From: Shigella phage KNP5
Sequence record: KX452698
Direction: 5' to 3' (one strand)
Length of the DNA stretch: 64,000 nt
The notes below the pieces were generated by a model that saw only the letters and a program-made list of their open reading frames with translations, did no database searches and was not told the origin of the DNA. Both the position numbers and the translations under genes were made by a program. Positions within the stretch are counted from its first letter, which is position 1. Every line of letters begins with the position of its first letter. This document shows, in pieces, positions 1,492 through 48,036 of the stretch.

Positions 1492-1965
1492 TTATTTGAA
1501 TGATTTGACGTACTGAATAGAGCCTTTGCTATTCACGAAAGCGATTTTACCATTTTTGTTATACATGGTAGCAGTACGCTGATAACCATAAGTTTGTTTA
1601 CCAGATTGATAACCAACTAATGCAAAATTATCTTCACCCATTTTATTCTGCTTCGCGCGGATACGTTCATGACCATGTGCCATAAGAACCTTAGCGTCGC
1701 CAGTTGCAATGGATCTACGAGTTTTTTCATCTTCAACTGTATTAACAAAGTCGTCAAATGAATCAAATTTAGCGTGAGATTTATTATACAGTTTTCCATC
1801 TACTGCATAATTATATCCCTGTACATCCATCTCAACTTCTGTACCATCATCCAATACAGCAGTGATTTTTTGACCTTTTTTAAATTTCAAAAGATCAGTA
1901 AAAGATTCAGCGATAATTTGAGAATTAATAGCTGCTTCAGTGATAAATTCTTGATATGTTTTCAT
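1492..1965 (-). CDS. head internal protein (IP-like) with N-terminal capsid targeting sequence
   Basis: 157 aa; begins MKTYQEFITE, matching the T4 IP capsid-targeting sequence with I-x-E protease sites (ITE, IAE); late promoter just upstream. Confidence 0.7.
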   Translation of the reverse strand: MKTYQEFITEAAINSQIIAESFTDLLKFKKGQKITAVLDDGTEVEMDVQGYNYAVDGKLYNKSHAKFDSFDDFVNTVEDEKTRRSIATGDAKVLMAHGHERIRAKQNKMGEDNFALVGYQSGKQTYGYQRTATMYNKNGKIAFVNSKGSIQYVKSFK

Positions 1966-1974
1966 GTGTTTCCT

Positions 1975-2391
1975 TTAAATGTAAATAGTTTTACCGTAGT
2001 ATTTATACCAGTGTGGCTTCATTAAAATTTTTTCATCGAGTCGTTGTTGACTCAACTTAATAGCTGATTTGCATGGATTATAATCATTTTTCCATTCTGC
2101 TGGAATATCGCTGATGTCAGGAACTTCAGTATCTTTTATATTAAACCCACGTTTTAAGCATTCCGTTATAATGTCTGATTGACGCTTTCGCAAAAATTCT
2201 AACTTATCATAAAAGAACGTAACATGACCAGAGCCTAAAATAAACTCGGAAGATATTTTAAAATCTTTAACCCGCTTACCATTTGCAACATGTTTACGAA
2301 CTATACCAAAAACACGCGGCAGTTCACGGTATTCTGCGATTAAATGTTGATCAGCAAGTTCAGATACTAAAGTCAAATTAATACGAGTCAT
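1975..2391 (-). CDS. denV: endonuclease V, pyrimidine dimer DNA glycosylase
   Basis: 138 aa; [17 protein letters not shown]...WYKYYGK closely matches T4 DenV. Confidence 0.92.
2000..2007 (-). promoter_or_regulatory. T4 late promoter core TATAAATA (inside the 3' end of denV) upstream of the IP-like gene
   Basis: plus strand tatttata = minus TATAAATA, about 35 nt upstream of the ATG at 1965. Confidence 0.6.
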
Positions 2392-2406
2392 TTTATCCCT
2401 CCAAGT

Positions 2407-2446
2407 AACTGTGAATATACTATCACAGTTCTAGAAGAAAGTAAAC
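2407..2446 (-). promoter_or_regulatory. early promoter (-35 GTTTAC) with the -10 region in the loop of an 8-bp hairpin, upstream of denV
   Basis: minus strand GTTTAC-18nt-TAGTAT; hairpin AACTGTGA/TCACAGTT at 2407-2430. Confidence 0.5.
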
Positions 2447-2450
2447 AACT

Positions 2451-2981
<531 letters not shown>

Positions 2982-3437
2982 TTAAAAGAGGCTGTTCATT
3001 ATTCGGTAAAGTGAAGGACCCATCACATATTGCCACTGAGTACGAGGAATAAGGGCAAAAGCATCCATCTCTGGAATCATAACACCATCTTTATTTTCAA
3101 AATAAGACTCGCAATGGCAATTTCTAAACATCTCATGCTCTACTGGAATCGTATAATAAAATAACTGTAAGTCTTTATTACTAGAATATTTAAATACACC
3201 TAGGTCTTCTAGAAGGTCTGAATTATAATCGATAAAACCAGTCTCTTCTGAGCATTCTCTTTTTGCAGCTTCCAGTGCATTCAAATCAGAACTTTCTACA
3301 CGGCCCTTTGGAATATCCCAGCGATGTGCCATCATTCCAGGTTTACGAGAACCAGTAACTCGTCCCATAAATAAATCTTTATCTTCTGTCATAAAGATAA
3401 TACCAGCTGATAATGTTTTCATTTTAATTTCCTGCAT
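2982..3437 (-). CDS. nudE: Nudix hydrolase
   Basis: 151 aa; Nudix box EAAKRECSEETG; position immediately after e as in T4 (e.1); alternative start at 3422. Confidence 0.85.
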   Translation of the reverse strand: MQEIKMKTLSAGIIFMTEDKDLFMGRVTGSRKPGMMAHRWDIPKGRVESSDLNALEAAKRECSEETGFIDYNSDLLEDLGVFKYSSNKDLQLFYYTIPVEHEMFRNCHCESYFENKDGVMIPEMDAFALIPRTQWQYVMGPSLYRIMNSLF

Positions 3438-3907
3438 TCAGTGATAAAGTTATTTAAATTTTGAGTATATTTCTTTTCATCAAAAATCTTTTGTTGTCTG
3501 CGTAGCCGCCATGGCATTTCAATGAACGTGTACCATATCCCAGATAATATTGCTGCTGTAAAAATATTAACAAGTATGGTTAAAAGAATCCAATCTCCTA
3601 TTCTGTCCATTGGATTTTTTATAAAAAAGTAAAATACGAATGATGTCACAGGAAGACTAATAATATACCACAGAATCATAATTTTATCTGTGAACCAATC
3701 AGCGTTCGTTAACTTAGCGCGACCATTATGAATACACACGAATTTATCGTCTGTTATAGTAGATGGCTTAACTGGTTGATATCCCATTCTAAACTCCCTA
3801 ATCAACAAATTTTTCATATCTTCGGAACAGCCATTCCAGTCAACTCTATCAACTGGAATGCCATCATCCCCATCATCTAAATCATACCAGCGAGTTTTTA
3901 AAATCAT
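3419..3907 (-). CDS. hypothetical membrane protein (T4 e.2-like position)
   Basis: 162 aa ORF with hydrophobic segments; ATGA overlap with next gene. Confidence 0.6.
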   Translation of the reverse strand: MILKTRWYDLDDGDDGIPVDRVDWNGCSEDMKNLLIREFRMGYQPVKPSTITDDKFVCIHNGRAKLTNADWFTDKIMILWYIISLPVTSFVFYFFIKNPMDRIGDWILLTILVNIFTAAILSGIWYTFIEMPWRLRRQQKIFDEKKYTQNLNNFITECRKLK

Positions 3908-4266
3908 TTGATTTTCCTACAATCATTCACGAATTCTTTCATTGATTCATTTTCAATATAAGACATGTAGCTATTGTATTCTTTTAATTGTATTTTGTAA
4001 TCCTTTTTTCTTTGCCAATTTATTTTAAAATTATCATAATGAAAAAATAGCATGGTACCAAAGAATGAAAATAATGAAATCGCTATAGTAAAACGAAGTT
4101 CACTCCAAACATCTGTTATAATTGCTGAACTATCGATGTTTAAAATAATACAGTCAATCATTAATCCAATAAGACTACCAGCAAGAGCTGCAGCCAACGC
4201 CACAGCAAGAATTAATAGCGCCTCGGGAAACGAATATTTGACTTTATTTAGTTTTGGCTTTTGCAT
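3904..4266 (-). CDS. hypothetical membrane protein (e.3-like position)
   Basis: 120 aa; hydrophobic core LLILAVALAAALAGSLIGL. Confidence 0.6.
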   Translation of the reverse strand: MQKPKLNKVKYSFPEALLILAVALAAALAGSLIGLMIDCIILNIDSSAIITDVWSELRFTIAISLFSFFGTMLFFHYDNFKINWQRKKDYKIQLKEYNSYMSYIENESMKEFVNDCRKIK

Positions 4267-5929: not shown

Positions 5930-6446
5930 TATTTTTAATTTTACAAATTCGTTCAGCTTCTTCAACGGCGGCGGCGATAATGCTTTTAGCTATAGGAGTA
6001 CTAATACTAGTAGCTTTTACACTTAACACGATTTCTTTATCTTTACTAGGCCAACCCCATGATTTTTCACCATGAGTGCCTTTAATAACAGCAGACACCT
6101 CAAGTGAGCATCCACTGTCACATGTTTTTACATTAACAACCCAAGGGTCACTTTTCTCAACCGATTTCTCAGCCGGTTTATCCCAGTAAATATTAAGAAT
6201 ACGTGGGACATCAAATTTAGCAGGGCAAATCTTAACTGTAAGACCTTCGCTTTCTAGCCAATTAATAAGAGGGCGTTCATACATGCGGCGATGTGGGCTT
6301 TGGACTCGACAAGCCTTGTGCCCATTGCTTGCGGCTTCACTAAGCTGTTCTAATACCTGTTTTTGCATTATTGATAAGATATCATCAAAAGATTTTTCGG
6401 AAGTTTCATTCAGTTCGGTATAAAGAGACATAACGGTTTTCCTCAA
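5901..6446 (-). CDS. hypothetical protein (e.7-like position)
   Basis: 181 aa ORF. Confidence 0.6.
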   Translation of the reverse strand: MRKTVMSLYTELNETSEKSFDDILSIMQKQVLEQLSEAASNGHKACRVQSPHRRMYERPLINWLESEGLTVKICPAKFDVPRILNIYWDKPAEKSVEKSDPWVVNVKTCDSGCSLEVSAVIKGTHGEKSWGWPSKDKEIVLSVKATSISTPIAKSIIAAAVEEAERICKIKNSLHLLNSMI

Positions 6447-6487: not shown

Positions 6488-6805
6488 TTATTTCATATTA
6501 TTGAAATATTCTTCTGCGATTTCGTCGTTATCGTGGTAAACTTTAGAAGACAGTTTAACATAACCTTCTGCTGTGAACATATTAATCACAACCTTTACAG
6601 TATACCACTGTCCGTCTTCATTACCCATTACTGCGTAAGTTTCAAACATCGGATGGTCAGGACCGATAACTTTAATATCATTCACTGTACGACCGAAATC
6701 TTCTGAAACGCATTTCATAAAGAAGTTGAACAGTTCGCCGTAATTATCCATTTCATTCTCCAAGTTGTTTTTCTGTATCAGTAGTTGATAGTTGTATAGT
6801 ACCAT
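6488..6805 (-). CDS. hypothetical protein (e.8-like position)
   Basis: 105 aa ORF. Confidence 0.6.
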   Translation of the reverse strand: MVLYNYQLLIQKNNLENEMDNYGELFNFFMKCVSEDFGRTVNDIKVIGPDHPMFETYAVMGNEDGQWYTVKVVINMFTAEGYVKLSSKVYHDNDEIAEEYFNNMK

Positions 6806-6824
6806 GGAAGAGCAGGGATGTAAA
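6796..6824 (-). promoter_or_regulatory. early promoter TTTACA-17nt-TACTAT
   Basis: minus tttcacaaaactaTTTACAtccctgctcttccatggTACTAT, upstream of the ORF at 6805. Confidence 0.45.
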
Positions 6825-6955
6825 TAGTTTTGTGAAAAAATTTTTAAAAATTTTTAGGGAATTCTAGGGCAGGGAGGGGCAATTAAAAGATAGGATAATA
6901 TATTATAAAGGGTAGAAACTAAATGATGTCTAGAGAGGTCCAGAAAGGCCTAGAT

Positions 6956-6986
6956 ACCAAAAAGCCCCAACCTTTTGGTCGGGGTT
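6956..6986 (-). terminator. rho-independent terminator (minus strand)
   Basis: minus AACCCCGACC aaaa GGTTGGGGC followed by TTTTT; downstream of the IP-like gene. Confidence 0.7.
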
Positions 6987-6993
6987 AAGAATG

Positions 6994-7467
6994 TTATTTG
7001 ATTTGTTTAGCAGACCAAATGCGGTCTTTAATAATTTTTTGAATGTCTTCAACATACTCAAGAGAGTGAACATGTGGATTATCTTTGAAACTATAAGCAC
7101 GGGCTAACTTTTGGCCTTCGGTTTTGATTACTAAAAGCTCTTTAAGGATAGCTTCATATTTAGAGATAATTCCTTTAACAATATTTTTTTCTTGTGCAAC
7201 TTTAGGATCTGCTTTAGGAGCAGGTTTACCCGAAGCCTTTGCAAAAGCAGCGCCAGTAGCAACTAGACTTTTCCAGGCCATACTAACCGCATTTCCCGTA
7301 AATCCTTCTGCTTTCATGTCGCGAGCAAATTGGAATCGTGATTCGTCAGAAGCATCTTTATAGGAATATTTACCCGCTGCAATGGCTGCTTTTGCGACAG
7401 CTTGAATTTCGGTGCTAGATGCTTCATTTAACACCGCTTCATTTAAAAATTGAGCATATGATTTCAT
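6994..7467 (-). CDS. head internal protein (IP-like) with capsid targeting sequence
   Basis: 157 aa; begins MKSYAQFLNE↓AVLNE↓ with L-x-E sites; own late promoter and flanking terminators. Confidence 0.65.
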   Translation of the reverse strand: MKSYAQFLNEAVLNEASSTEIQAVAKAAIAAGKYSYKDASDESRFQFARDMKAEGFTGNAVSMAWKSLVATGAAFAKASGKPAPKADPKVAQEKNIVKGIISKYEAILKELLVIKTEGQKLARAYSFKDNPHVHSLEYVEDIQKIIKDRIWSAKQIK

Positions 7468-7507
7468 CTTATTTCCTGTTTTAATTCGTGGATTTAATAT
7501 ACTACTA

Positions 7508-7515
7508 TATTTATA
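7508..7515 (-). promoter_or_regulatory. late promoter core TATAAATA
   Basis: plus tatttata; about 40 nt upstream of the ATG at 7467. Confidence 0.6.
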
Positions 7516-7516
7516 C

Positions 7517-7547
7517 TAAAAAGCCCCAACCTTTCGGTCGGGGCTAA
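7517..7547 (-). terminator. rho-independent terminator ending the tRNA / stable-RNA transcription unit
   Basis: minus GCCCCGACC gaaa GGTTGGGGC followed by TTTTT. Confidence 0.7.
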
Positions 7548-7850
7548 GCCTTGCGGCAACCTTGTCGGGGTTCCACCTGCTAAGGCAAGTGTTTGTACGA
7601 AACGCCGGGATTCGAACCCGGTTATTAAGCAGTTGACGCTACTCAATATTTTTAAAAGGCCATATCTCGACCATATCCGAACGTTCCGTCAAAAACGCTA
7701 CTCGGCTTACGGCAAAGATATTTCCTCGAATCGATAATTCGGTGCGCCGTTTCAGCTGTGATAGTAAAGAACCAGAACACAGTAAAACTGTGGGAGGAAC
7801 TATACTCCAGGGAACATCAGTCCGACGACTTACCGGTAGCGACCCGGTTT
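7548..7850 (-). ncRNA. candidate stable small RNA region (T4 species 1/2 RNA-like position)
   Basis: about 300 nt non-coding between the ORF at 7852 and the terminator; contains a tRNA T-arm-like element CCGGGTTCGAATCCCGG; T4 carries two stable RNAs in the same cluster. Confidence 0.35.
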
Positions 7851-7851
7851 C

Positions 7852-8202
7852 TTAATATTCTTTTAAAGTATCAATCTGTTCACGACGTTTACGCCATAAA
7901 TCAATTGCTTCATACGCAGATTCAGCATTTCGAATTAGTCGGCATTTGTGTAAAGACTTATGATTTTGATATTGTGTAGATAACGGAATTTTATCTAAAA
8001 GGTCTTTACGTTCAAAGTATTCGTAACCATCTAAGCCAAATGAACGATTTTTAAGAAATTGCCAATGACCATATTCGTTTTCGACATAAACATAATCCGC
8101 ATGTTGATAAAGCAAATTAATTACACGTTCAGAAATAACAGTGTCATTGTGATTAAAATAAAATGTTAAATCATGAACTACTAAATAAACATTACCTTTC
8201 AT
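7852..8202 (-). CDS. hypothetical protein embedded in the tRNA cluster
   Basis: 116 aa ORF between tRNA-Arg and the stable-RNA region; no GIY-YIG or HNH motif seen. Confidence 0.5.
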   Translation of the reverse strand: MKGNVYLVVHDLTFYFNHNDTVISERVINLLYQHADYVYVENEYGHWQFLKNRSFGLDGYEYFERKDLLDKIPLSTQYQNHKSLHKCRLIRNAESAYEAIDLWRKRREQIDTLKEY

Positions 8203-8218: not shown

Positions 8219-8294
8219 TGGTCGAGACAGTAGGGATCGAACCTACGACCTAGGACTTAGAAGGTCCTTGCTCTTCCTTCTGAGCTATGCCTCG
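8219..8294 (-). tRNA. tRNA-Arg (anticodon UCU), CCA encoded
   Basis: hand-folded cloverleaf: acceptor CGAGGCA/TGTCTCG, anticodon loop CUUCUAA, T-loop TTCGATC. Confidence 0.85.
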
Positions 8295-8298
8295 TATT

Positions 8299-8373
8299 TG
8301 GCGGACATGCATGGATTCGAACCATGGACCAATTGATTAACAGTCAACTGCTCTACCACTGAGCTACACATCC
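8299..8373 (-). tRNA. tRNA-Asn (anticodon GUU), CCA encoded
   Basis: hand-folded: D-arm GCTCAGTGGTAGAGC, anticodon loop CUGUUAA, T-arm CATGG-TTCGAAT-CCATG. Confidence 0.8.
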
Positions 8374-8377
8374 AAAT

Positions 8378-8464
8378 TGGTGGGGAGTGATGGAGTCGAA
8401 CCACCCGAGTCGCAATGACAATGGATTTACAGTCCACACCGCTACCTCTACGGGATAACTCCCC
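8378..8464 (-). tRNA. tRNA-Tyr (anticodon GUA), class II long variable arm, CCA encoded
   Basis: perfect 7-bp acceptor GGGGAGT/ACTCCCC, anticodon loop CUGUAAA, long variable arm; D-arm slightly irregular. Confidence 0.65.
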
Positions 8465-8476
8465 TAATTCTTAATT

Positions 8477-8551
8477 TGGTGGCCCTGGGTGGAATTGAAC
8501 CACCATCTGGCGATTATGAGTCGCTTGCTTGAACCTTCCAGCTACAGGGCC
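8477..8551 (-). tRNA. tRNA-Ile (anticodon CAU, lysidine type; Met not excluded), CCA encoded
   Basis: anticodon stem-loop GCGA-CUCAUAA-UCGC resembles bacterial tRNA-Ile2; acceptor GGCCCTG/CAGGGCC. Confidence 0.8.
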
Positions 8552-8552
8552 T

Positions 8553-8628
8553 TGGTGCTGATTGACGGAATCGAACCGCCGACCTTCTCATTACAAGTGA
8601 GTTGCTCTACCTACTGAGCTAAATCAGC
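8553..8628 (-). tRNA. tRNA-Thr (anticodon UGU), CCA encoded
   Basis: acceptor GCTGATT/AATCAGC, anticodon loop CUUGUAA. Confidence 0.85.
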
Positions 8629-8633
8629 AAAAC

Positions 8634-8723
8634 TGGCGGAGGCGATAGGATTTGAACCTATGAGTCGCCGGAGCGACTGCCGGTTTTCAAGACCGGTGCA
8701 TTAAACCACTCTGCCACGCCTCC
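8634..8723 (-). tRNA. tRNA-Ser (anticodon UGA), class II, CCA encoded
   Basis: acceptor GGAGGCG/CGCCTCC, anticodon stem-loop CCGGT-CUUGAAA-ACCGG, long variable arm. Confidence 0.85.
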
Positions 8724-8725
8724 AG

Positions 8726-8799
8726 TCTCCATACAAGGATTTGAACCTTGGACCTCCTGATCCCAAATCAGGCGCTCTACCAAACTGAGCTACACGGAG
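8726..8799 (-). tRNA. tRNA-Pro (anticodon UGG), CCA not encoded
   Basis: anticodon stem-loop CCTGA-UUUGGGA-TCAGG, T-arm CAAGG-TTCAAAT-CCTTG. Confidence 0.8.
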
Positions 8800-8809
8800 T
8801 AAATTAAAT

Positions 8810-8883
<74 letters not shown>

Positions 8884-8888
8884 AAATT

Positions 8889-8975
8889 TGGTGCGAGAAG
8901 TGGGACTCGAACCCACAAGGAAATCATTCCGCAGCATTTTAAGTGCTGTGCCTTTACCAATTTGACCATTCTCGC
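8889..8975 (-). tRNA. tRNA-Leu (anticodon UAA), class II, CCA encoded
   Basis: acceptor GCGAGAA/TTCTCGC, anticodon stem-loop CAGCA-CUUAAAA-TGCTG, long variable arm. Confidence 0.85.
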
Positions 8976-8976
8976 G

Positions 8977-9049
8977 CTGGGAATAAAGGACTCGAACCTT
9001 TGCATCCTGGAATCAAAATCCAGTGCCTTACCAACTTGGCTAATTCCCA
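8977..9049 (-). tRNA. tRNA-Gln (anticodon UUG), CCA not encoded
   Basis: acceptor TGGGAAT/ATTCCCA, anticodon stem-loop CTGGA-UUUUGAU-TCCAG. Confidence 0.8.
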
Positions 9050-9135: not shown

Positions 9136-9715
9136 TTAAAGCAAATTAAACATTTTAACGGTCGGCAAAACAATTTCTTCTTCTATATAAGAGTATTTAA
9201 CACTCTCAACTACACGCAAAAAATCATAATCATAATACTCAGAAGCATTACCTAAAATATTAATAAGTCCTTCAAGCACTTTATTACCATTCACAAAGAA
9301 TAAGTCAAATACACGTTCTTCATCTTCTTCAGATTTATTACCAAGATCAACTTCTATGCGAAAGACCTTTTTAATGAATTCTGGATAAAGCTGGTCTGAG
9401 AACAGTCCTTCAACCNNNNNNNNNNNNNNNNNNNNNNNNNNNNNNNNNNNNNNNNNNNNNNNNNNNNNNNNNNNNNNNNNNNNNNNNNNNNNNNNNNNNN
9501 NNNNNNNNNNNNNNACCACAATAGCGCTCAATTTTAGTACTAGAATATCTGCTTTTAAACTTCTTCAAAAGATACTGAAATTGTAAGATTTCATGCTCTT
9601 CTACGCCAAACAATGTTTTGGTTTTATTGTTGTCGCCATCATTTTCCCAGGTAGTGACATCAATTACGTAGCCCTGCGGAATTGTAGTACCTAAACAAAT
9701 ATTCATTTTCACCAC
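9136..9715 (-). CDS. hypothetical protein interrupted by a 99-nt unresolved (N) block
   Basis: ORFs 9410..9715 and 9136..9531 flank the N run in different frames; probably one gene of about 190 aa. Confidence 0.4.
9416..9514. other. unresolved sequence (99 N)
   Basis: run of n characters. Confidence 1.
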
Positions 9716-10598: not shown

Positions 10599-10618
10599 TT
10601 TATTCTCCTCGGTAGTTG

Positions 10619-10680
10619 ATAGGGTAATAGTATCACAACTAAAACCCTATGTAAACAACTTTGTGAAATTATTTTAAATC
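10619..10680 (-). repeat. promoter-hairpin repeat copy A (PeSL-like early promoter plus stem-loop)
   Basis: 32-nt identical core atgtaaacaactttgtgaaattattttaaatc shared with 10979-11010, plus 7-bp hairpin atagggt/accctat. Confidence 0.7.
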
Positions 10681-10926
10681 TTCTAATCGTTTCTTCATCT
10701 TAGAACCATTTTTAGCAATTTCTCCTGCATCGGAGCATAATGCTAAAAGTGCTTTAACTTTAGTTTGGTCTCCTTTAAAAGATGAAGGATCGACTGCAGC
10801 AGCAAGTTCTTTAATACGAGAGAAAAGACGCTCAGCTTCAGCTAAAGCCATTCCAAGCTTTACTTCCATACCGTGAGAAGATTCAGTGATAGTGGTTTTT
10901 GTAGCAAACTCTTTGAAAGTTTTCAT
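10669..10926 (-). CDS. small IP-like protein at the ipI locus (putative capsid-targeted)
   Basis: 85 aa; begins MKTFKEFATKTTITE↓ (CTS-like with I-x-E site); sits immediately downstream of 57B, where T4 carries ipI. Confidence 0.55.
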   Translation of the reverse strand: MKTFKEFATKTTITESSHGMEVKLGMALAEAERLFSRIKELAAAVDPSSFKGDQTKVKALLALCSDAGEIAKNGSKMKKRLEDLK

Positions 10927-10946
10927 TTTATTTTCCTAATTAATTT

Positions 10947-11695
<749 letters not shown>

Positions 11696-39497: not shown

Positions 39498-39922
39498 TGC
39501 TTCTGATCCCTGAAACTCATGAATTAGTTCTCGAGAATGTCGAAGCACTTATTCCTGAAGCACAGGGTCGCTTTGACGAATTGTCTTCTGCTTTAAATAA
39601 AGACGATATAAATACAATTGTCGAGAATATGCTTGATGATGAAACTGATTTAGCGATTGCATTAGCTTCTATTAATGAAGATATGCCGCTAAATGAATTC
39701 ATCGTTAAACATGTTTCTGCTCGTGGTGAAATTACACGTACCAAAGACCGTAAAACGCGTGAACGTAATGCATTTCAAACCACCGGGCTGTCTAAAGCAA
39801 AACGTAGACAAATTGCTCGCAAAGCTACCAAAACGAAGATTGCCAATCCAGCAGGTCAATCTCGTGCTCAGCGTAAGCGTAAAAAAGCTCTTAAACGCCG
39901 TAAAGCATTAGGATTAAGCTAA
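39497..39922 (+). CDS. 68: prohead core protein gp68
   Basis: 141 aa, matches T4 gp68. Confidence 0.88.
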
Positions 39923-40560
39923 TGAATGAACCCCAATTACTAATTGAAACTTGGGGTCAACCTGGCGAAATTATTGATGGCGTGCCAATGCTTGAATCTC
40001 ATGATGGGAAAGACCTCGGTTTAAAACCTGGTTTATACATCGAAGGAATATTCATGCAAGCGGAAGTCGTCAATAGAAATAAACGTCTTTATCCAAAACG
40101 CATATTAGAAAAAGCGGTAAAAGACTATATCAATGAGCAAGTTTTAACTAAACAAGCTCTCGGAGAATTAAATCATCCTCCACGCGCTAATGTTGACCCG
40201 ATGCAAGCCGCTATCATTATAGAAGATATGTGGTGGAAAGGAAATGACGTATACGGACGAGCTCGTGTTATTGAAGGTGACCATGGTCCTGGAGATAAAT
40301 TAGCAGCTAATATTCGTGCCGGATGGATTCCAGGAGTTTCTTCTCGTGGATTAGGTTCATTGACTGACACAAATAAAGGTTATCGTATCGTAAACGAAGG
40401 ATTCAAATTAACTGTAGGTGTTGATGCAGTATGGGGTCCAAGTGCTCCAGATGCATGGGTAACTCCTAAGGAAATTACCGAATCACAGACGGCGGAAGCC
40501 GATACAAGTGCCGATGACGCCTATATGGCTCTCGCAGAGGCCATGAAAAAAGCGTTATAA
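39922..40560 (+). CDS. 21: prohead core scaffold protein and protease gp21
   Basis: 212 aa, matches T4 gp21. Confidence 0.93.
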   Translation: MNEPQLLIETWGQPGEIIDGVPMLESHDGKDLGLKPGLYIEGIFMQAEVVNRNKRLYPKRILEKAVKDYINEQVLTKQALGELNHPPRANVDPMQAAIIIEDMWWKGNDVYGRARVIEGDHGPGDKLAANIRAGWIPGVSSRGLGSLTDTNKGYRIVNEGFKLTVGVDAVWGPSAPDAWVTPKEITESQTAEADTSADDAYMALAEAMKKAL

Positions 40561-40590: not shown

Positions 40591-41400
40591 ATGCTTAAAG
40601 AACAACTGATTGCTGAAGCGCAAAAAATTGATGCTTCCGTTGCTCTTGATAGTATTTTCGAATCAGTTAATATTTCTCCGGAAGCAAAAGAAACTTTCGG
40701 CACTGTATTCGAAGCTACCGTCAAGCAGCACGCCGTTAAATTAGCTGAATCTCATATCGCTAAAATTGCTGAAAAAGCAGAAGAAGAAGTAGAAAAAAAT
40801 AAAGAAGAAGCCGAAGAAAAAGCTGAGAAGAAAATTGCTGAGCAAGCTTCTAAATTCATCGACCATCTTGCAAAAGAATGGCTCGCTGAAAATAAATTAG
40901 CAGTTGATAAAGGCATCAAAGCCGAACTGTTTGAATCCATGCTTGGTGGATTAAAAGAGCTCTTTGTTGAACACAACGTTGTTGTTCCAGAAGAATCAGT
41001 TGATGTTGTAGCTGAAATGGAAGAAGAGCTGCAAGAACATAAAGAAGAATCAGCTCGTCTGTTCGAAGAACTCAATATGCGCGACGCATATATCAATTAT
41101 GTGCAGCGTGAAGTGGCATTGAGCGAAAGTACTAAAGATCTGACTGAGTCTCAAAAAGAAAAAGTCTCTGCTCTGGTCGAAGGTATGGATTATTCAGATG
41201 CATTCTCAAGTAAATTGAGTGCCATCGTAGAAATGGTGAAGAAATCTAATAAAGATGAAAGCACTATTACTGAGGGTATAAATACTCCTGATACTGAAGC
41301 AGCCGGACTGAATTTCGTCACTGAAGCTGTAGAAGATAAAGCTGCACCTGGTGCAGAAGATATTGTAAGTGTATATGCGAAAGTCGCATCTCGTTTCTAA
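40591..41400 (+). CDS. 22: prohead core scaffolding protein gp22
   Basis: 269 aa, charged coiled-coil, matches T4 gp22. Confidence 0.93.
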   Translation: MLKEQLIAEAQKIDASVALDSIFESVNISPEAKETFGTVFEATVKQHAVKLAESHIAKIAEKAEEEVEKNKEEAEEKAEKKIAEQASKFIDHLAKEWLAENKLAVDKGIKAELFESMLGGLKELFVEHNVVVPEESVDVVAEMEEELQEHKEESARLFEELNMRDAYINYVQREVALSESTKDLTESQKEKVSALVEGMDYSDAFSSKLSAIVEMVKKSNKDESTITEGINTPDTEAAGLNFVTEAVEDKAAPGAEDIVSVYAKVASRF

Positions 41401-45964: not shown

Positions 45965-48036
45965 TTATGGATAGGTATAGATGATACCAGTTTCTAAAGC
46001 AGTTTTATGAATGATGTATCCATTACGTGATTCTTGAACATCAACTTCTGGATAGTCTTTCATCATCTTCTGAAGGGTGTAACGGTGCAGGTAGTATTTA
46101 CTATCTGGATCTTCAGTTTTCCAATCTTTACCTTCTTCGGTCATTTTTTGGATTTCATCCATAACCCACCAACCGCACCAGATATAAGCTGAAGTACGAT
46201 GTGGAAGAGGATGAACATAAGGCAATTCACCTTCTGGTTCCGGAGCAACTTTATCAGTCACCTGAACTTGGCCTGTTGCTTTAACTGTTTTACTGTCATA
46301 GTCAGTTGCTGTAACGACAGCAGTAACTTCAATAGTTTGACTTCCAATAGATGAGGTATCGACAGTATATACGTTAGTTGACCCTTCCACAGGAGAAGAA
46401 TCTTTCTTCCATGAATAAGTAATTTGTGCTGCTTCAGGTGCTCCAGTAACATTAGCTGTAAATGTAGCCGAAGCATCTTGCTGAACGTTAATAGAAGGAG
46501 GAGTCAATGCAACCTGTGGATTCATTGTCTTCTTATTAACCGTCAGTGACACTTCGTTGGAAGTAACTTCCTTTTCATTGTAATTTTCTGCAGTTACTTG
46601 CGCTACACATTTAATTCTTTTTACTCCACTTGTAGTTGGAGTATAGTTAAATGTAGAGTTAGTTTCTCCACCAATTTGAGAATCATCTACATACCATTTA
46701 TATGTAGCAGTTGCGCCGTCGGGTTGAGAAGCTAAGGCAGCAGTAAATTGAACAGCTGTTCCAATTACTCCAGCTGGAGGACTAGCAGGAGTTACAGCTA
46801 AGGTAGTTGTCTGCNNNNNNNNNNNNNNNNNNNNNNNNNNNNNNNNNNNNNNNNNNNNNNNNNNNNNNNNNNNNNNNNNNNNNNNNNNNNNNNNNNNNNN
46901 NNNNNNNNNNNNNNNNNNNNNNNNNNNNNNNNNNNNNNNNNNNNNNNNNNNNNNNNNNNNNNNNNNNNNNNNNNNNNNNNNNNNNNNNNNNNNNNNNNNN
47001 NNNNNNNNNNNNNNNNNNNNNNNNNNNNNNNNNNNNNNNNNNNNNNNNNNNNNNNNNNNNNNNNNNNNNNNNNNNNNNNNNNNNNNNNNNNNNNNNNNNN
47101 NNNNNNNNNNNNNNNNNNNNNNNNNNNNNNNNNNNNNNNNNNNNNNNNNNNNNNNNNNNNNNNNNNNNNNNNNNNNNNNNNNNNNNNNNNNNNNNNNNNN
47201 NNNNNNNNNNNNNNNNNNNNNNNNNNNNNNNNNNNNNNNNNNNNNNNNNNNNNNNNNNNNNNNNNNNNNNNNNNNNNNNNNNNNNNNNNNNNNNNNNNNN
47301 NNNNNNNNNNNNNNNNNNNNNNNNNNNNNNNNNNNNNNNNNNNNNNNNNNNNNNNNNNNNNNNNNNNNNNNNNNNNNNNNNNNNNNNNNNNNNNNNNNNN
47401 NNNNNNNNNNNNNNNNNNNNNNNNNNNNNNNNNNNNNNNNNNNNNNNNNNNNNNNNNNNNNNNNNNNNNNNNNNNNNNNNNNNNNNNNNNNNNNNNNNNN
47501 NNNNNNNNNNNNNNNNNNNNNNNNNNNNNNNNNNNNNNNNNNNNNNNNNNNNNNNNNNNNNNNNNNNNNNNNNNNNNNNNNNNNNNNNNNNNNNNNNNNN
47601 NNNNNNNNNNNNNNNNNNNNNNNNNNNNNNNNNNNNNNNNNNNNNNNNNNNNNNNNNNNNNNNNNNNNNNNNNNNNNNNNNNNNNNNNNNNNNNNNNNNN
47701 NNNNNNNNNNNNNNNNNNNNNNNNNNNNNNNNNNNNNNNNNNNNNNNNNNNNNNNNNNNNNNNNNNNNNNNNNNNNNNNNNNNNNNNNNNNNNNNNNNNN
47801 NNNNCAGCTTCTGGAACTGTATTTGTTGCAACCACCTTAATAGTCTTTTGACCGGCAGGTCCTTTTAATACATAATCAAAAGTTGCTTCAGCTCCATCCT
47901 GTGGAACATTATCTACACTCCAAGCATAGGTAATAGTTCCACCTTCGGTTTGACCACTTGGTGCAGCAGTAAACTGCTTGGTTTCATCAATAACTCCAGT
48001 AGGTGTTTTAGGAGTTATATCAACTGTAAAAGCCAT
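45965..48036 (-). CDS. hoc: highly immunogenic outer capsid protein Hoc, interrupted by a 990-nt unresolved block
   Basis: N-terminal 77 aa (MAFTVDITPKTPTGVIDETKQF) before the gap and 282 aa after it (QTTTLAVTPASP ... IIYTYP) match T4 Hoc; flanks are in different frames. Confidence 0.85.
46815..47804. other. unresolved sequence (990 N) inside hoc
   Basis: run of n characters; ORFs called through it are artefacts. Confidence 1.

Follow-up and report, generated by a model that had tools for sequence, protein, structure and literature searches.

What does a gene contribute to a T-even phage when it stands by itself between the stable RNA genes and the e.x genes, with a late promoter of its own and a terminator on either side? 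The question is raised by a stretch of 64,000 nucleotides from Shigella phage KNP5 (sequence record KX452698; hereafter the window), a Tequatrovirus segment whose genes are arranged as in RB51, RB32 and AR1. Here an open reading frame (ORF) of 157 amino acids (aa) lies on the minus strand between rnaC and e.8. The best explanation, which we consider reasonably likely, is that the product of this cassette belongs to a hitherto unnamed family of T-even internal proteins (Ips). T-even Ips share only a capsid targeting sequence (CTS) and have been proposed to form a diverse set that counters host restriction enzymes (Rao and Black, PMC3012670).

The ORF is preceded by a ribosome-binding site and, with 40 nt separating it from the ATG, by the T4-type late promoter core TATAAATA. 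Two G+C-rich hairpins, each followed by a T-run, enclose the gene; their fold energies of -20.3 kcal/mol upstream (z -3.9) and -15.1 kcal/mol downstream (z -3.0) were equalled or beaten by at most 1 of 200 shuffles. The tRNA/rnaD/rnaC transcription unit terminates at the upstream hairpin, and no sigma-70-type promoter was found on the coding strand between this hairpin and the ATG. Judging from the match to the promoter consensus, the gene would be expressed late, with the head genes. The initial annotation, which was made from the DNA letters, had described an ORF with the e.x genes on one side, the tRNA cluster on the other, a late promoter core 40 nt upstream and hairpin terminators at both ends, and each of these elements stands.

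The N-terminus of the protein, MKSYAQFLNEAVLNEASS, can be written as MKSYAQFLNE/AVLNE/ASS. Compared with MKTYQEFI[AST]E, the leader of T4 IPII and IPIII and of Ip4 and Ip9, its first ten residues include five identities and three conservative changes (S/T, Q/E, L/I). Candidate motifs for the prohead protease gp21 follow at the end of the leader, first L8-N-E10 and then L13-N-E15 five residues on. The earlier suggestion of a CTS-like start with L/I-x-E cleavage sites is thus upheld at the sequence level. T4 IPI, with I-T-E at residues 17-19, follows the same logic; mature IPI* begins at residue 20. The window has 493 frames that start with Met and reach at least 50 aa; only 3 of them, Ip4, Ip5 and the 157-aa ORF, begin with MK[ST][YF]x[EQ]F. 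The core TATAAATA occurs there 24 times against 9.8 +/- 3.0 in shuffled sequence. A chance origin of these signals is therefore unlikely.

The strongest argument for a CTS is the comparison of leaders, which spans Tequatrovirus, Mosigvirus, Jiaodavirus (Klebsiella), Tegunavirus (Yersinia) and metagenomes. The homologues begin with leaders of 9-15 residues, for instance MKTYAQFLMTE, MKSYAEFLTE, MKFKEFLAE, MLKFNEFLAE and MLEYSEFLKE-LFCE. All of them keep [YFK]-x-[EQ]-F-L and a hydrophobic-x-Glu boundary in front of a conserved mature start, (A/Q)SxS(D/E)(V/I)xAxA. A hairpin followed by TATAAATA recurs upstream of the homologues in RB32, Shigella phage Sfk20, RB27 and Klebsiella phage phiKp_22, and also precedes a two-gene operon in Yersinia phage fHe-Yen9-01; the arrangement is kept in three genera (Tequatrovirus, Jiaodavirus and Tegunavirus) although the hairpin sequences of the Klebsiella and Yersinia phages differ. 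The machinery on which packaging would depend is present as well, as the window encodes gp21 and the scaffold protein gp22 along with gp20 (portal), gp67, gp68 and gp23.

The leader might instead be a relic of recombination with ip genes, attached to a late cytoplasmic protein that is never packaged. In Sfk20 the cassettes have 42 nt of leader DNA in common (76% identical), so that recombination can pass leaders from one cassette to another, and packaging itself is something that we infer. This explanation is improbable, however, because the leader and the hydrophobic-x-E boundary are kept up to the phages of Klebsiella and Yersinia despite indels, where a relic would be expected to decay, and because the leader is predicted to form a flexible extension outside the folded domains.

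Removal of 15 residues from the 17.2-kDa precursor would leave a product of 142 aa and 15.5 kDa with an isoelectric point (pI) of 9.6, carrying 24 Lys and Arg against 16 Asp and Glu residues. AlphaFold2, run on an alignment of eight sequences, predicts an all-helical protein at a mean confidence (pLDDT) of 76.7. In this model residues 1-15 have low pLDDT and are flexible, and a three-helix N-terminal domain is joined by a Lys/Pro-rich linker to a long antiparallel helical hairpin. The conserved core of the N-terminal domain reads AGKYSYKDxSDESRFQFARDMK, within which AGKYSY...E.R..F is invariant. The body of the protein had at first been described as showing no recognisable motif. Searches of Pfam (E up to 0.1) gave no family, a profile search of PDB sequences gave a best E of 2.2, and Foldseek found nothing below E 1 in the PDB and only the protein's own family in BFVD, all of which agrees with that description.

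A third L-x-E site (L108-K-E110) lies within the C-terminal hairpin, and expression would be late, alongside the core genes. Both would suit a dispensable accessory of the prohead core or scaffold that gp21 degrades to peptides, like gp22, gp67 and gp68, with nothing functional delivered to the cell. Such a fate is even less probable than a cytoplasmic one: the internal site lies in a long, confidently predicted helix (pLDDT about 85), and purifying selection acts along the full mature length, which is unexpected for a degraded protein.

That selection is strong. Pairwise dN/dS, the ratio of non-synonymous to synonymous divergence, falls between 0.03 and 0.13, and the comparison with RB32 yields 22 synonymous and three non-synonymous changes. 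By tblastn the gene is present in 510 phage records, against 589 with e.8 (about 85%). The 157-aa ORF is a real gene under strong purifying selection, and carrying it is the majority state, with T2, T4 and T6 among the minority without it. A chance ORF or annotation artefact, for which nothing speaks beyond the absence of a known domain, is already refuted by the excess of synonymous changes, by the occurrence in 510 genomes and by the conservation of promoter, ribosome site and terminators; its probability is practically nil.

How the family relates to known Ips was assessed by sequence and by position. In BLASTP at E up to 10, the mature part had no match to any of the seven named Ips compared (Ip1, 2, 3, 4, 5, 7 and 9). 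The 157-aa protein belongs to PHROG 2280, while Ip4, Ip5, Ip7 and Ip9 belong to other PHROGs. The gene also lies outside both classical ip loci (57B-trna.4 and denV-e). The protein is therefore distinct, as the initial annotation proposed, and no orthologue of ipI, ipII or ipIII. Its novelty is qualified: the protein corresponds to none of the seven named Ips compared, but the ORF itself was recorded in 2006, when the RB32 record listed RB32ORF133c as a 'hypothetical protein, flanked by 34 bp imperfect direct repeat'. The annotators of RB32 and RB51 named Ip4, 5, 7 and 9 and left the 157-aa gene 'hypothetical'.

IPI-III and Bas37_0260, a CTS protein at the ipI locus, resemble the 157-aa protein in having a CTS-type leader that ends in (L/I)-x-E, in being small and dispensable and, as far as sequence indicates, in relying on gp21 and gp22. 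The precursors of IPI, IPII and IPIII are basic, as is that of the 157-aa protein (pI 8.9-9.5), and Ip4 in the window is likewise preceded by a late promoter core. In contrast, there is no similarity beyond the leader and no structural match in the PDB, the locus is rnaC-e.8 rather than 57B-trna.4 or denV-e, and the 157-aa family is much more widely conserved. Ip1, Ip2 and Ip3 each block a distinct GmrSD type IV enzyme (Silas et al., 2025, PMC12373910), and Bas37_0260 blocks McrBC (HIDEN-SEQ preprint, bioRxiv 10.1101/2025.11.20.689424). The known targets are thus GmrSD variants or McrBC.

From these observations a sequence of events can be proposed. The upstream terminator would stop early transcription coming from the tRNA/rnaC unit, so that the gene would be read from its own late promoter only, together with the head genes. 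The leader of 10-15 residues would target the protein to the scaffolding core that gp22 forms in the prohead, where gp21 would cut after Glu10 and/or Glu15 and leave the basic helical protein in the head. It would then enter the cell with the DNA and act before any phage gene is expressed, most plausibly against a nuclease-type host defence and, by analogy, against a modification-dependent (type IV) restriction enzyme. The steps that we infer, which differ in strength, are packaging, cleavage by gp21, injection and target. That the product is a packaged and processed internal protein is probable. An anti-defence role of some kind, suggested by the inhibition of type IV restriction enzymes that Ip1, Ip2, Ip3 and Bas37_0260 have in common, has about an even chance on this analogy, and specific inhibition of a type IV enzyme can be put forward only tentatively.

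Several points weigh against a packaged anti-restriction protein. Five of the ten leader positions depart from the canonical CTS, and in some homologues position P3 of the presumed cleavage site is Met or Phe instead of Leu or Ile. A late promoter does not amount to incorporation into the virion, as late promoter cores also precede the lysozyme gene e. The mature protein yielded no informative fold or motif in Pfam, PDB or BFVD. A literature search turned up neither virion proteomics nor data on cleavage or injection for any of the family's members; the virion study of phage SH7 covers only 13 detected structural proteins. The one published panel that set ip4-10 against additional GmrSD systems saw no reproducible inhibition, so possession of a CTS does not guarantee a findable target. 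Finally, the known anti-restriction Ips are sporadic and hypervariable, whereas this family is widespread in four genera under strong purifying selection; its presence in about 85% of the e.8-bearing T-even genomes, strongly conserved, does not suit a simple IPI-like picture.

The breadth of conservation invites a more generic role, in which the packaged protein is a basic, DNA-associated head component serving charge neutralisation, DNA organisation, ejection or early takeover. The mature pI and excess of basic residues fit such a component, as does retention at low dN/dS in most T-even-type genomes, and the duplication of paralogues with retained architecture, described below, suits a conserved job better than an arms-race effector. 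We nevertheless regard the generic role as unlikely. T2, T4 and T6 grow normally without the gene; lineages differ considerably in the N-terminal domain, where dN reaches 0.36; and the basic IPII and IPIII, long thought to be generic, proved to be specific GmrSD inhibitors (PMC12373910).

Another reading is that the injected proteins of phrog_2280 form a class that is old, widely retained and settled at a locus of its own past the tRNA genes. They would act beyond GmrSD and McrBC, for example on a defence or host factor that Escherichia, Shigella, Klebsiella and Yersinia share. This is rather doubtful at present, although somewhat less so than a generic role. If true, a major part of the injected arsenal of 'wild' T-even phages has been hidden by the laboratory models T2, T4 and T6, all of which lack it.

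The wider interest of the locus lies in how Ips have come to light. Since 2025 all T-even Ips of known function have turned out to inhibit a type IV restriction enzyme specifically, and they were discovered only through their presence in T4 or in a studied phage of the BASEL collection (Bas). Most of the T-even-type phages sequenced so far, including many candidates for therapy, have a member of the 157-aa family, which is labelled 'hypothetical' and absent from T2, T4 and T6. A probable injected protein at rnaC-e.8 would add a third ip locus, and its recognition may help to explain differences in host range among near-identical phages. The concept of internal proteins is unchanged by the family.

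The cassette itself is a 524-bp indel bounded by the duplicated terminator of the rnaC operon. The two flanking hairpins are direct repeats of 36 nt that are 92% identical and 559 bp apart. In T4 there is no gene between e.8 and rnaC, and the empty site holds a single copy of the repeat. Nucleotides 1-83 of the 284-nt intergenic region of T4 match window positions 7595..7513 and nucleotides 49-284 match 6988..6752, and the 35-nt overlap of these matches is the sequence that is duplicated in the window. The rnaC-e.8 site is also empty in T2 and T6. The gene is present in RB32, RB51, RB27 and AR1, and in the BASEL phage Bas42 ('AndreasVesalius') as bas42_0248; in G28 it is frameshifted. It is dispensable, and its presence or absence varies among close relatives; over the 801 bp around it, the window is 97-99.8% identical to many T4-like phages of Escherichia and Shigella. 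Gain and loss of the cassette may proceed by homologous recombination between the two terminator-repeat copies. The G+C content of the cassette (37.8%, against 36.1% for the window) is unremarkable and thus gives no sign of foreign origin.

Comparable units have been described as PeSL cassettes (Arbiol et al., 2010, PMC2839356). As in KNP5, two copies of a GGGG...CCCC stem-loop terminator enclose an ORFan, a sister genome has one copy of the motif and no gene, and the unit is transcriptionally insulated by its own promoter and terminator. In contrast to PeSL, the KNP5 repeat lacks a sigma-70 early promoter (no match on the coding strand in or beside the repeats), and its promoter is the late TATAAATA, which lies almost wholly outside the repeated segment. 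If the proposed reading is true, a cassette made of a terminator repeat and a late promoter would be the late-gene counterpart of PeSL shuffling.

A related organisation is described for the named Ips. In work by Repoila and colleagues from 1994, the alternative ORFs Ip4-Ip13 reportedly share only an 11-aa leader and occupy the two classical loci. Their cassettes are said to be flanked by a repeated regulatory sequence, with possible shuffling; the flanking repeats are reportedly about 70 bp long and hold an early promoter overlapped by an inverted repeat. The 157-aa cassette differs from these in its third locus, its terminator-repeat flanks and its late promoter only. On either side of Ip5 in the window (10600-11000) there is a nearly identical stretch of about 50 nt, TTTCACAAAGTTGTTTACAT...GTGATACTATTA..., with an early-type promoter inside. 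The Ip5 flanks thus follow the PeSL and Repoila style, in contrast to the terminator repeat and late promoter of the 157-aa cassette. Ip4 sits past denV, at the place that ipII and ipIII occupy in T4, downstream of e. Its length equals that of the 157-aa ORF by coincidence, and the sequences are unrelated.

Beyond its own members the family has few relatives. PHROGs returned only phrog_2280, whose function is not annotated. An exhaustive phmmer search with the mature part against 1.84 billion representative sequences gave nine matches, eight of which are proteins or fragments from T4-like phages; the ninth, P0017, a repetitive low-complexity protein of 2315 aa, was rejected as spurious. Database names are 'hypothetical', except for one UniRef 'Internal head protein' given to a Klebsiella-phage member. 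Homologues in four genera of the Tevenvirinae share the leader, the hairpin with late promoter, and a position just past the tRNA genes.

In some phages a second cassette lies between the 157-aa gene and e.8, as in Sfk20 (also pSs-1 and RB14) and the Mosigvirus PhAPEC2. Its product of 187 aa begins MKTYAEFLTE/AAK... and its gene has its own terminator. BLASTP aligned the 187-aa and 157-aa proteins over the 11-aa leader only, and hhalign found just a weak C-terminal match between the two families (E 0.002-0.026, probability 2-14%); PHROGs places both in phrog_2280. The link is provided by Yersinia phage fHe-Yen9-01, where the region just past the tRNAs runs: hairpin, TATAAATA, a 189-aa protein (MLQYNEFLKE/SLISE/A...), 9 nt, a 178-aa homologue, hairpin. 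The 189-aa protein aligns collinearly over its full length with P0015 (E 1e-13), with the 187-aa protein of Sfk20 (E 1e-4) and with the 157-aa protein of KNP5 (E 0.002). These bridging alignments mean that the 157-aa and 187-aa proteins are one diverged group. A phage carries no member of the family, a single one or two diverged paralogues, at a conserved site past the tRNA genes, and the rnaC-e.8 site would be a third internal-protein locus, used for leader-bearing genes of this family in four genera.

Truncated versions of the protein also occur. The linker-coding region holds an A7 homopolymer that is a frameshift hot-spot. In phage G28 (about 6380-6400 of its stretch) the run is A8, and the resulting 97-aa product retains the leader and N-terminal domain, while in RB32 and RB51 the A7 run is interrupted by a synonymous G. 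Six independent truncated clusters (P0006, P0008, P0009, P0022, P0036 and P0038) end near the tract. Such truncations could be sequencing errors in the homopolymer, or real variation that switches the gene on and off or sheds a domain.

Table 1. Positions of the 157-aa gene, its signals and the features compared with it; window coordinates unless another phage is named.
Feature	Position	Strand	Remarks
157-aa ORF, phrog_2280	6994..7467	-	stop codon included; RB32ORF133c family; dN/dS 0.03-0.13
CTS-like leader, MKSYAQFLNE/AVLNE/	7423..7467	-	codons 1-15; two tandem L-x-E candidate gp21 sites
Three-helix N-terminal domain (predicted)	7234..7422	-	codons 16-78; helices 18-71; AlphaFold2
Lys/Pro-rich linker, residues about 72-87	7207..7233	-	codons 79-87; pLDDT 55
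Long antiparallel helical hairpin (predicted), residues about 88-154	6997..7206	-	codons 88-157; AlphaFold2
A7 homopolymer	7184-7190	-	linker-coding region; frameshift hot-spot
Shine-Dalgarno AGGAAA	7472-7477	-	read from sequence; 4 nt 5' of start codon
Late promoter core TATAAATA	7508-7515	-	T4-type
Upstream direct-repeat copy, 35-36 nt	7513..7548	-	terminator stem 7522-7545; aligns to the single copy of T4
Downstream direct-repeat copy	6954..6989	-	terminator stem 6965-6984
Segment without counterpart in T4, 524 bp	6989..7512	-	promoter, ribosome site, ORF, start of second repeat
rnaC (species 1 RNA)	7596-7734	-	upstream neighbour; BLAST, 98.6% identical to T4 rnaC
e.8	6488..6805	-	downstream neighbour; own early-type promoter at 6796-6824
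Ip4, 157 aa, MKTYQEFITE/AA	1492-1965	-	own TATAAATA at 2000-2007
Ip5	10669-10926	-	early-type promoter flanks
gp21 prohead protease	39922-40560	+	Peptidase_S77, 1.5e-111
gp22 scaffold	40591-41400	+	T4_CASP, 9.5e-90
Second leader-bearing protein, 187-189 aa (RB69ORF149c / RB14ORF136)	Sfk20 1693-2256	-	annotated hypothetical; coordinates of the stretch examined
Same, in PhAPEC2	2089-2652		coordinates of the stretch examined
Same, in fHe-Yen9-01	3422-3991		coordinates of the stretch examined

On the minus strand the genes follow in the order 57B (Acb1), Ip5, the trna.x ORFs, ten tRNAs, a 116-aa ORF, rnaD, rnaC and the 157-aa ORF, and then e.8, the rest of the e.x genes, e, denV and Ip4. Rfam holds no model for rnaC or rnaD, and rnaC was therefore mapped by BLAST to T4. 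Of rnaD, only about 50 nt of T4 sequence are recognisable (7803-7852), compared with the close identity of rnaC. The 116-aa ORF (7852-8202, minus strand; RB51ncORF141c / RB69ORF150c, phrog_3355) lies between tRNA-Arg and rnaD. The ten tRNA genes (8219-9049, minus strand) include those for Asn and Tyr, both missing in T4, and there is no segB homing endonuclease within the cluster, unlike in T4, RB32 and G28. The product of 57B (10999-11454, minus strand) matches the Pfam family Acb1, an anti-CBASS nuclease, at E 3e-60; the gene is directly upstream of Ip5, which places two anti-defence-type genes side by side. Runs of masked N occupy 9416-9514 (99 bases) and 46815-47804 (990 bases), and ORFs across the first of them show X residues. 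In Yersinia phage fHe-Yen9-01, a 128-aa ORF with a Pfam match to YadA_anchor (433-819 of the stretch examined) lies near the tRNA cluster.

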